Below are positions 18,001 to 21,000 of a DNA stretch of 44,878 nt, piece after piece. Within the stretch, counting starts at the first letter, position 1. Each line of letters opens with the position of its first letter. The position numbers are program-made. Where the stretch lies: UHGV virus genome UHGV-0250870; one strand, given 5' to 3'. The stretch comes from a virus.

Positions 18001-21000
18001 TGCCTGCGAAGCGATTCGCTGGTGGATTAAGGACGGTGGCAGAGACTGCCGTATTCGTTCAAACAACTGTTACGGTCAGGTATCCCGTCGCGACCAGGAG
18101 AGTGCGCTGGCGTGCTGGGGAATTGACAGATAAGCAGAATATTTTGCTGAAAAATGCGGTTTGCTCACACGGACGGATAACACGAAATCCTGCGAACTGA
18201 CAAAAACTAAGTGAATAAAAGTAAAAACCCCGTTTGTTGGCTGCAAGCGGGGTTTTGTGTTTCCTGACTCTGGAAAAGTCAAAGGAGAAAGTGTGTTTGA
18301 TTTTAGCAAACTGATTCGGGAGATTCGAGTGATGGCTGAAAAATTATCCACCTGGAAGTTCATTCTTATCTGGCTGGTGTTTGTGATTATGGCCTCCGGT
18401 TATTTCATCGGTCAGATACGCTGGTGGTGAAATGAACCGCGTACTGTGCGTGGTCATCATTGCCCTGCTGGTGGCCTGTGGTGCGCTTAGTCTGGGGCTG
18501 AATCATTACCGTGATAACGCCATAACCTACAAAGCCCAGCGCGACAAAAATGTCAGAGAACTGAAGCTGGCGAACGCGGCAATTACTGACATGCAGATGC
18601 GTCAGCGTGATGTTGCTGCGCTCGATGCAAAATACTCGAGGGAATTAGCCGATGCGAGAGCTGAAAATGAAACTCTTCGCGCTGACGTTGCCGCTGGTCG
18701 TAAGCGCCTGCGTATCAACGCCACCTGTCCAGGTCCCGTGCGTGAAGCCACCGGCACCGCCCGCGTGGATAATGCAACCGGCCCCCAACTGGCAGACACC
18801 GCTGAACGGGATTATTTCATCCTCAGAGAACGGCTGATGACAATGCAGAAGCAGCTGGAAGGGGCGCAGGAATATATCCGCACTCAGTGCACTAAGCTGG
18901 CTTTTTATTATCCGGAGGATACATGAAGAAATTACGGGTAACCGTAGAACCTTTTCAGGGAACAATTCCGTTCCGTATTTTGCAGCGTGGTCGTGTTCTT
19001 GTTGAAGGTTCGTTCAGTGGTAAATGTACGCAATTACACTCCCGGACCTCTCAGGTGAATGCCACGAATGAAGAGCTAACCGTGGAGTGTACGATGAATG
19101 CCGCTAAATGCCGCATGGTATCCGCTGCATTACAGCCAGTGTGTTGAGCGACCTTATTATCCATGCGCGGTATTGTCGCCGTATTCCTGCATTAACAGAG
19201 ACCGCAGCCCGACAGGGAGACTCCTCTGCGCGAGTGTGCGGGGATAATCAAAAACGATACACACCGGGGTTTACCGCGTTAACGGAGCGCGGCGTTGTCC
19301 CCTCATAGTCGCCTGTCCGGTGCGATGGTGAAAGAAACCGAACGTTCATTTCTCGTTATTTGTCATGCTGGTCGGGCGCAGATGCGTTGCATCTGTTGCC
19401 AGCCTTCTCCTGCAGGCTTCAATAACCCACGCTGAAAAGTTACCGGACCCTTTATGCTCAAGGGCTATGTTGATTTGTTCAATTATGTGATTGGGGAAAC
19501 GGATATTGCGGGTTGTGGTTCTGCGGGTCCGGTTTTTCGATGACATATTTATTTCCTTTACTGATTGCCATATGACGGGGATTTTACATGGCTGAGCTTC
19601 GTACACTCCAGAGCAGAATCAAAACACTGAATACCCGACGGGTGAATATTCTGAAGGGGGAACAGCGTCGTGTCAGTGGCAGTGCACGTGTTTCCCTCAA
19701 GCGTCATATCTGGCTGAGGGACGCCGGGCAGTGCTGTATCTGTGGTCGTGTGGTTGACCTCTGTGACAGTGAACTCGATCACCGAATTGCACTTCAGTTC
19801 GGTGGTGGTAATGAGGAGACGAATCTCTGGACGCTCTGTACCGAATGCCATCGACAAAAGTCTGCTCGTGAAGCGGCGGGTGGTATGCCGGACCCGACGC
19901 TGCCGGAGGTGTCCGGAGGTAGTGACAGAGCGGACGACATCATCGGACTGTAACCCGACCCGGGGGGGGTATCATCCGGCGTAAAAAACGATCGCTTTGG
20001 ACACCGCGCCCCCTCTCACGCAGAGAAAAAATTCCCGTTTCAGGGCAGTTAACATGTTAACTGGCTGCCCGGGCATTTTTGCGGTTTTTATCTTTATTAT
20101 TCAGTTTGTTGTGCGGAAAAAATGTTAACAGGCTTTTTCAGCAAATGTTAACCAGGCAGCAGTTAACATTTGCGGCATGAGACGCCGGGGAAAAATGGGC
20201 TGAACCATACCCGGCTGAGTGCGTTCTGGACCCGGGAGGAGGCTGTGCTGACAACGCAAAAACGAAAATTTGCGCTGGCGCTCATGTCCGGGAAAAACAA
20301 AACAGCGTCAGCCATTGCCGCCGGTTATTCGGCGAAGACCGCCAGGGTTAAAGGCTCGCAGCTGGCAAAAGATCCGGAGGTGCTTGCGTTTATAGCCCGT
20401 AAACAATGCGAGACGGTGGAGGTGGATGAGGTTCCTGTTTACCGGCAGAAAAAATCAGAGCAGGAGGATAAACCCCGTCGCCGTGAGGCGGCTGCAATAC
20501 CTCAGCCGGACGAAAATAATCCGGAGATGCCACCATCCGCGGTGATGTCTCCTGGTATTGAATATATGGAGGATGGTCTTCCCGATCCGGTGAAAGCCAT
20601 GGGGCGGATCCTGGTGGAAAACCTCTGCATTGATCCGAAACTGGCACTGGATGCGGCCTGGCGTCTGGCGCAGTTCACGCACCATAAAAAAGGGGATACC
20701 GGGAAAAAATCGGCAAAAGGTGATGCCGCGAAAAAAGCGGCTAACCGTTTTGCGGTGCCACCGCCACCCCGACTGGTGGTGAATAACGATAATGAGGGCA
20801 ACGGATGATACCTGTATGGAGCACAGCCTGCCCGGACTGGGCAGAGCGCCTGAAAAAGGGGCTGTCGATTATTCCGGATCCGATTTATCCGGACGAGGCC
20901 GCACATGCCCTGGCGATTTTTAAACAACTGCGGATTGTGGATGCACCTGGTAGCCCGACGTTCGGGGAGTCCTGTGCACCGTGGGTGTTTGACCTGGTGG

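Follow-up and report, generated by a model that had tools for sequence, protein, structure and literature searches.

The gap between R and Rz

The 44,878 nucleotides (nt) of UHGV virus genome UHGV-0250870, referred to here as the window, represent the late region of a lambdoid, Shiga-toxin (Stx)-phage-like Escherichia coli prophage. Our subject is a gap of 298 bp in the lysis genes. On the upstream side is the endolysin gene R (positions 17600-18133, plus strand; Pfam PF00959 with E=5e-24, phrog_7), the product of which we read as being of the signal-arrest-release type. On the downstream side is the i-spanin gene Rz (18432-18926, plus strand; PF03245 with E=2e-49, phrog_13), with Rz1 embedded within it (18652-18837, plus strand). 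Between R and Rz lie a hairpin, a short leader and an open reading frame (ORF) of 45 codons (18293-18430, plus strand) for a single-pass membrane peptide. On balance we favour an explanation in which a self-contained accessory cassette with four parts takes up about 215 bp of the gap. These would be a bidirectional intrinsic terminator; a leader of some 36 nt with a small stem-loop that pairs the Shine-Dalgarno (SD) sequence; the 45-codon gene, with a probable 32 amino acid (aa) form initiated at Met14; and, on the opposite strand, a sigma-70 promoter of the extended -10 type placed inside codons 3-12, from which an antisense RNA of about 75 nt would be made.

A conserved membrane-peptide gene

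The ORF begins with GTG at 18293, comprises 45 sense codons and stops with TGA at 18428-18430. The SD sequence AAGGAG (18282-18287, plus strand) is placed 5 nt before the GTG, and an SD sequence at this distance is kept in homologues. An earlier note on this DNA had pointed to a GTG-initiated ORF of this length with a strong SD sequence, and the elements were found at most 4 nt from where it had placed them. It had also described the frame as ending exactly at the start of Rz. The two do come within 1 nt of each other, but a single base (A, 18431) separates the TGA from the Rz ATG at 18432. The one hydrophobic helix that it recognized is evident as a 19-residue Kyte-Doolittle maximum of 2.13 over residues 24-42, corresponding to one transmembrane segment. 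The 22 residues on the N-terminal side carry a net charge of +2, only Arg-Trp-Trp (RWW) follows the helix, and an orientation with the N-terminus inside is predicted by the positive-inside rule.

The length of such an ORF is by itself not significant against chance; its conservation is. A scan of one genome per species detected homologues at 47-87% identity across about 12 genera of Enterobacterales (Trabulsiella, Citrobacter, Edwardsiella, Yersinia, Izhakiella, Sodalis, Brenneria, Symbiopectobacterium, Serratia, Providencia and Dryocola), and a further one in a metagenome-assembled genome labelled Azoarcus. The start codon and SD sequence occupy the same place across the scanned homologues. 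In ten ungapped sequences of 45 codons the pairwise differences fall on codon positions 1, 2 and 3 in the proportions 38, 14 and 48%, and the ratio of nonsynonymous to synonymous substitution rates (dN/dS) is 0.03-0.27, with dS mostly above 1, indicating purifying selection. The hidden Markov model (HMM) of phrog_6632 matches with E=1.2e-29, residues 1-45 aligning with profile positions 1-45 of 45. The family pattern is x-S-K-(L/I)-(I/V)-R-E-(L/I)-R-x-M, followed further on by L-P-x-W-(K/R)-F and then the transmembrane segment. The family is small; from 1.84 billion representative proteins a profile search retrieved just 40 clusters.

Exactly this ORF is annotated in some records, by GenBank (phage CP-1639) and by the Prokaryotic Genome Annotation Pipeline. 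The GenBank 'putative bacteriophage protein' CAH23245.1 (WP_000459343.1) belongs to the same protein family from end to end. Neither these entries nor that of phrog_6632 record a function, a link to the hairpin, an antisense promoter or a second start. Longer annotated starts, giving 57 and 72 aa, were ruled out, as the upstream frame is unconserved. The earlier note would have been contradicted by loss of the reading frame in related phages. The frame is instead open in all scanned homologues, dN/dS is low and the PHROG match is full length, and together with the position of the start and SD sequence and the existing annotation this supports a translated transmembrane ORF of 45 aa after the terminator. 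We have very little doubt that it is a real, selected gene.

Hairpin and leader

The hairpin AAAACCCCGTTTG-ttggc-CAAGCGGGGTTTT spans 18224-18256, forms 14 pairs of which six are G-C and is followed by GTGTTTCCTG. A hairpin terminator 3' of R had been noticed previously; the start assigned to it, 18228, corresponds to where the G+C core has its first C. The stem and its plus-strand tail, GTGTTTCC, have the composition of an intrinsic terminator. An A-rich tract lies on the 5' side of the stem and reads as the tail TTTTTACTTTTATT on the minus strand; the element is therefore a terminator on both strands, extending over 18214-18266 with its A-rich and T-rich tracts. Compared with shuffled sequences the RNA containing the hairpin has a folding z of -4.6 on the plus strand and -3.9 on the minus strand. 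Among six terminator-like sites in 3.2 kb the hairpin ranks first in strength; shuffles give 3.4 +/- 1.9 such sites.

The arrangement is retained among relatives. In 39 unique modules the distance from hairpin to start codon is 35-42 nt, and the tails on both strands are T-rich, with means of 6.8 and 6.4 T in 9 nt. RNAalifold recovered nine stem pairs for the terminator, seven of them with compensatory changes. The leader stem-loop, SL1 (18260-18288), pairs the SD sequence on the sense strand, or its complement on the antisense strand, and its helix is maintained among homologues with at least eight different stem sequences. The tails on the two strands are equally T-rich, and the idea that the one on the minus strand is the better preserved was dropped. 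A strand preference of the leader helix judged from G-U pairs gave a mixed result that is not decisive. Rfam covariance models applied to 18134-18431 gave no match at the gathering score, and the sub-threshold matches were driven by the terminator.

A predicted promoter on the opposite strand

Promoter statistics were restricted to homologues found through peptide motifs outside the N-terminus (12 sequences); 116 modules retrieved with a DNA pattern covering the promoter region were excluded. Expected values came from an enumeration of every synonymous codon at the usage frequencies of E. coli. Two blocks of synonymous sites are frozen, codons 3-6 (GAT TTT AGC AAA) and codons 11-12 (TTG CGA). 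Where serine is encoded the codon is always AGC, and Arg12 invariably uses the rare CGA. Codons 7, 8 and 13, in contrast, are free to vary. Read on the minus strand the blocks give TGcTAAAAT, an extended -10 element, and TCGCAA, a weak -35 element, exactly 17 bp apart. The pattern TGnTAnnnT was observed in 12 of the 12 sequences, against 0.14 expected per sequence, and TnG of the -35 element in 11 of 12, against 0.06. Two positions persist through amino-acid replacement: the A at -11 (codon 4, third position) is invariant with Phe, Ile or Leu as codon 4, as is the G at -14, part of the TG (codon 5, third position), with Ser or Ile as codon 5. In the window the predicted minus-strand -10 element occupies 18300-18308 (TG 18308-18307, TAAAAT 18305-18300) and the predicted weak -35 element, here TCGAAT in place of the TCGCAA of most homologues, 18323-18328.

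Seven distant homologues retrieved by protein identity alone served as an independent set. Six of them combine the bidirectional hairpin and the leader helix with TGnTAnnnT on the minus strand at equivalent codons. The motifs are TGcTAGAAT, TGcTAATGT, TGaTAAACT, TGcTAAGAT and TGcTAAAAT, together with TGaTAGGAT, which is shifted by 2 nt. The seventh (L346) has no hairpin, carries TGcTGATAT, in which the -11A is now G, and has lost Met14, all three together; this copy (2001-2150 of its sequence) adjoins SIR2 and WYL genes.

Since the predicted -10 and -35 elements on the minus strand face a shared terminator, a cis-antisense RNA of about 75 nt is predicted at 18216-18293 on that strand, and we consider it more likely than not. 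It would start opposite the GTG (18292-18294), pass through the complement of the SD sequence and then the leader helix, and terminate at the hairpin common to both strands. The promoter scan had proposed a different minus-strand promoter, at 18415..18386, which was rejected because it covers codons that vary among homologues.

A third constrained feature lies between the frozen blocks. The SD-like GGGAG at codons 9-10 (18318-18322, plus strand) stands 9 nt before the in-frame ATG of Met14, and an SD-like 4-mer at these codons, for which synonymous resampling predicts about 0.06, was observed in 12 of 12 sequences. Met14 does not vary in the close set and hardly does so across the family, and natural versions that have the short form only exist (L016, P0043). 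The frozen GGGAG ahead of so constant a methionine suggests a second product of 32 aa (18332-18430, plus strand), although on whether 45-aa and 32-aa products are both made from the two in-frame starts our judgement is evenly poised.

Genomic contexts

The cassette is present in single copy in the window; among temperate phages of enterobacteria it occupies many intergenic positions within late operons. At least 80% of the gap interval occurs in 871 of 5,426 complete E. coli genomes, and gap DNA is found in 323 phage records, including H-19B, CP-1639, TL-2011c and many Stx1a, Stx2a and Stx2c phages. The gap is modular: positions 1-156 of the query are far commoner than the ORF part, with any match in 2,027 genomes against near-full coverage in 871. 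The flank immediately 3' of R (18134-18215, plus strand) belongs outside the cassette, as query 1-85 matches prophages that carry an antirepressor instead. An antirepressor occupies the R-Rz site in prophages Sp6, Sp10 and Sp15 of the Sakai strain. In such prophages, Sp10 for example, the hairpin is absent; about 85 nt after the R stop (18134-18218) are kept even there. The Qin prophage of K-12 was considered as a carrier and discarded; its rrrQ and rzpQ overlap, leaving no cassette.

Most copies are found between endolysin and spanin genes. Upstream neighbours verified with HMMs are a Phage_lysozyme endolysin, a GH108 protein with PG_binding_3 and Peptidase_M15_4; two more are putative endolysins that have no Pfam match. 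Downstream at these sites are spanins of the Rz or DUF2514 type. Elsewhere the cassette separates a Gp138_N/GpV-apex baseplate spike gene from a W-like gene, belongs to a Mu-like head module, or lies beside type II toxin-antitoxin (TA) pairs upstream of terminase. Other copies lie 3' of what we read as tail-fibre or baseplate genes. Because of the baseplate, head and TA contexts the cassette is not confined to lysis, and the endolysin-spanin junction is only favoured. The TA-associated copies (2501-2635 in L340 and L341, 454-603 in L345) sit among ParE, RelB/YafQ, HicB and PrlF/YhaV pairs near terminase, in accessory regions away from any lysis gene.

Does the hairpin then belong to R, which, as the earlier note says, it follows? 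ORF homologues in unrelated contexts are also preceded by the hairpin, diverged in sequence with the structure kept, and homologous DNA shared between unrelated contexts begins about 10 nt 5' of it. It thus travels outside lysis contexts and is bidirectional. Very probably it is part of the small-gene cassette and is inherited with it, and is not simply the terminator of R. Two versions in which the N-terminus (13 codons) has been replaced (L016, L018) show, by eye, no hairpin in the upstream sequence printed for them.

Other small transmembrane ORF families with the same hairpin and leader were noted (2590-2840 of L003, and the viral contigs L300, L326, L249 and L335). In one of these, the KYKR family of 60 aa (phrog_1115/4493), the minus strand reads TATACT over the same codons, and an internal Met is encoded at about codon 13. 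Several of the related families end in (I/V)RWW, like the 45-aa protein, and some copies carry an upstream ORF of eight codons (MGREVLSL) with a stop that overlaps the GTG start. A first scan of viral contigs had returned only near-identical E. coli copies of the cassette.

How the cassette may work

No sense promoter is conserved across contexts, nor is there room for one between the hairpin and the SD sequence; lacking a sense promoter of its own, the cassette is read as drawing sense expression from the host operon. In lambdoid phages polymerase modified by Q reads through intrinsic terminators. The Q antiterminator gene of the window (11241-12062; Pfam Antiterm) lies upstream of the cassette on the same, plus, strand, and the peptide would be made only when Q-antiterminated late transcription passes the terminator. 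The antisense RNA could be produced at any time and, with the terminator, would prevent use of the GTG start in lysogens. Once the prophage is induced, terminator and antisense RNA would both be overrun by late transcripts, and during lytic growth the RNA may impose a threshold or divert initiation to Met14. The TGAaATG junction would allow translational coupling to Rz.

We infer the antisense promoter and the dual start from footprints in the sequence, and the explanation as a whole, antisense control included, we regard as somewhat probable. With respect to the peptide, the small size, single helix and apparently tight repression suggest a membrane-active late function, toxin-like or holin-like, which is favoured with low confidence. 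A part in lysis timing is hinted at by the preference for endolysin-spanin junctions, an accessory role of a selfish or defensive kind by the other contexts.

Comparison with known systems

Type I TA systems such as hok/sok, ldr/rdl, symE/symR and ibs/sib offer an obvious comparison. They too encode a small (<60 aa) hydrophobic peptide with a single helix, in keeping with the 45 aa here, and control it with a cis-antisense RNA across the ribosome-binding site, for which the predicted RNA of about 75 nt would be the counterpart. The predicted promoter inside the first codons resembles that of SymR, and an antisense terminator hairpin within the mRNA leader is a feature of Sok and Rdl. In contrast, the cassette has no sense promoter and relies on late read-through of the phage, its gene is preceded by a bidirectional terminator, and searches of Pfam and NCBIfam gave no similarity to the toxin families Hok, Ldr, TisB, Ibs and ShoB. 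On two of the features tested, sense promoter and toxin-family similarity, it fails to qualify as a member of the type I systems.

A combination of two in-frame starts with an antisense RNA over the upstream one, both predicted here, characterizes sieB/esc of phage P22, although SieB is a much larger protein of unrelated sequence. Ranade and Poteete are said to have described in 1993 how the sas antisense RNA switches sieB/esc translation to the internal start. The sas RNA of this system is mentioned in PMC7067206.

The dual-start holins lambda S107/S105 and S21 71/68 are likewise membrane proteins of a lysis cassette with two in-frame starts (the second being predicted here), an RNA stem-loop at the ribosome-binding site and a longer form with additional N-terminal charge. 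Unlike them the peptide has a single transmembrane segment in 32-45 aa, ends in RWW and so lacks a charged C-terminal tail, has no match to a holin HMM and is encoded also in baseplate and head operons. Morons, for example the superinfection exclusion gene gp15 of HK97, share the placement of an extra small membrane-protein gene between essential late genes and a mosaic scatter. A classical moron in the sense of Hendrix and Juhala has its own promoter upstream, a terminator downstream and expression in the lysogen, whereas here the terminator is upstream, no sense promoter is conserved and the stop abuts the next gene; the cassette is not a classical moron. The isrK-orf45-anrP locus of Gifsy-1 was also considered and is a different thing, as orf45 is unconserved as a protein and serves translational coupling to anrP.

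Alternative explanations

Is an antisense RNA needed at all? The gap might hold an ordinary terminator and a small late membrane protein with nothing transcribed from the other strand. The frozen sites would then reflect needs of the sense strand, namely an internal SD sequence and, around a weak GTG or TTG start, an A/U-rich initiation region free of structure. Several results weigh against the cassette explanation and most of them suit this plainer one, for which gene and hairpin are both real. The sigma-70 scan made no call at the predicted promoter, where by our count 8 of 12 hexamer positions match and the -35 element is weak, with the caveat that the scan criterion ignores the TG. Neither the terminator tails of the 39 modules nor the stability of the leader helix among homologues shows a strand preference. 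Constraints on the initiation region or an internal SD sequence could explain part of the freezing of codons near the start, and the conserved xGG GAG block is indeed best explained on the sense strand. Any joint probability from the 12 sequences is overstated because they are phylogenetically related, though dS is near saturation. A limited literature search found no transcript, start-site or ribosome-profiling evidence for the locus, and neither the RNA nor a function of the peptide is described in PMC12197685 (a review of phage small RNAs), PMC4104026 (Hfq-bound RNAs of enterohaemorrhagic E. coli), PMC7067206 (the transcriptome of Salmonella prophages) or the Pas small-RNA preprint that it covered. 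As to function, the peptide has no match beyond noise at E<=10 in Pfam or NCBIfam, known toxin families included, no holin family match in Pfam or PHROGs and no family at E<=10 among the PADLOC anti-phage defence HMMs. The plain explanation nonetheless leaves without account the constant AGC serine and rare CGA Arg12, the survival of the TG and the -11A through amino-acid replacement, the exact 17 bp spacing of the frozen blocks and the joint loss of hairpin, motif and Met14 in L346. We think it rather unlikely.

A further alternative makes the antisense RNA the real cargo, a small RNA of the lysogen acting in trans on mRNAs of the host or on late mRNAs of superinfecting relatives, with the ORF separate or secondary. 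AgvB and AsxR of enterohaemorrhagic E. coli (EHEC) prophages and STnc6030 of BTP1 are known trans-acting prophage small RNAs. Encoding of small RNAs on the minus strand of prophage late regions is documented (PMC4104026; PMC7067206), the cassette is often found among accessory genes, and the predicted RNA has the build of such a molecule, its 5' stem-loop being joined by an A-rich linker (mostly AGAAACAGAAAA among homologues) to a U-tailed terminator. Yet the stretch of the ORF that encodes the transmembrane segment is not covered by the RNA and is under purifying selection, which argues that the protein matters. There is also no Rfam family match, and the table of Hfq-bound RNAs from cross-linking and analysis of cDNAs (CRAC) in EHEC Sakai has no peak in an R-Rz gap, although Sp6, Sp10 and Sp15, the Sakai prophages examined, carry other cargo there in place of the cassette. 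The idea strikes us as improbable. Hardly credible is the suggestion that the ORF is spurious, the gap being 3' untranslated region and spacer, or that a minus-strand ORF of 95 aa (18076-18363), annotated here in CP-1639, is the real gene. It draws on that annotation and on the lack of any in most records. It is already contradicted by the conservation data: the plus-strand frame has the codon-position pattern, the dN/dS values and the PHROG match, and the minus-strand ORF cannot be conserved where the upstream DNA of homologues is unrelated.

The surrounding prophage

The lysis cassette has its own holin, an S21-type pinholin (16963-17181, plus strand), and a YdfR/DUF1327 gene on the plus strand is situated between it and R. 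On the 5' side of the holin is a sialate esterase gene, also on the plus strand, and between the two there is a strong terminator-like hairpin (16898-16926, plus strand) of 12 pairs followed by TTTTATTGTT. The prophage small RNAs PasA and PasC were mapped to the esterase-holin interval by Zhu, Shabalina and Storz (2026 preprint). PasB is in a structural operon, and none of the three Pas RNAs, which were considered as candidates, is in the R-Rz gap.

Further upstream, on the plus strand as well, are three tRNA genes (13736-13982) and two tandem STnc100 copies (14061-14251 and 14529-14738). Despite this layout of Q, tRNAs and STnc100 copies, typical of a Stx-phage late region, stx genes are absent. 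Downstream, a 74-codon ORF (18923-19147, plus strand) overlaps the Rz stop (ATGA) and partially matches phrog_2571, of unknown function. EcOnc10, EcOnc11 and EcOnc12, abundant Hfq-bound peaks of EHEC Sakai, are positioned just 3' of Rz (Sakai 1946819-1946867) and have the late genes on the other strand. They adjoin a YlcI/YnfO (DUF3950) gene, and in the interval 19147-19606 here the same gene is found at 19346-19606 on the minus strand. Elsewhere in the prophage Rfam matches occur to the sok antitoxin RNA of hok/sok-type type I systems (9041-9216, plus strand) and to DicF (175-226, minus strand).

Significance

Catalogues already list the gene, as one for a hypothetical protein. The structure around it, with terminator, covarying leader helix, predicted antisense promoter and putative second start, appears undescribed and has good support from the comparison of sequences. 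A bolder possibility, advanced tentatively, is that this is an undescribed type I TA-like cassette, horizontally mobile and promoter-less, that would act as a parasite of late operons. A constitutive antisense RNA and the bidirectional terminator would hold a dual-start membrane peptide in check in lysogens, until Q-dependent transcription overran the two and released it. That peptide might be a lysis-timing or membrane-depolarizing factor, or a dead-man or exclusion device, and the KYKR and RWW families would share the leader design.

Drawings of the lysis cassette in lambdoid and Shiga-toxin phages usually show a holin, an endolysin and a spanin; here there is a fourth gene, conserved and under selection. 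If the antisense RNA and the dual start hold true, the cassette would be a compact and portable means by which a membrane-active peptide is made in the late phase only, and would extend control of the type I toxin kind to promoter-less modules inside phage operons. In Stx phages it could influence the timing of lysis, and hence the release of toxin.

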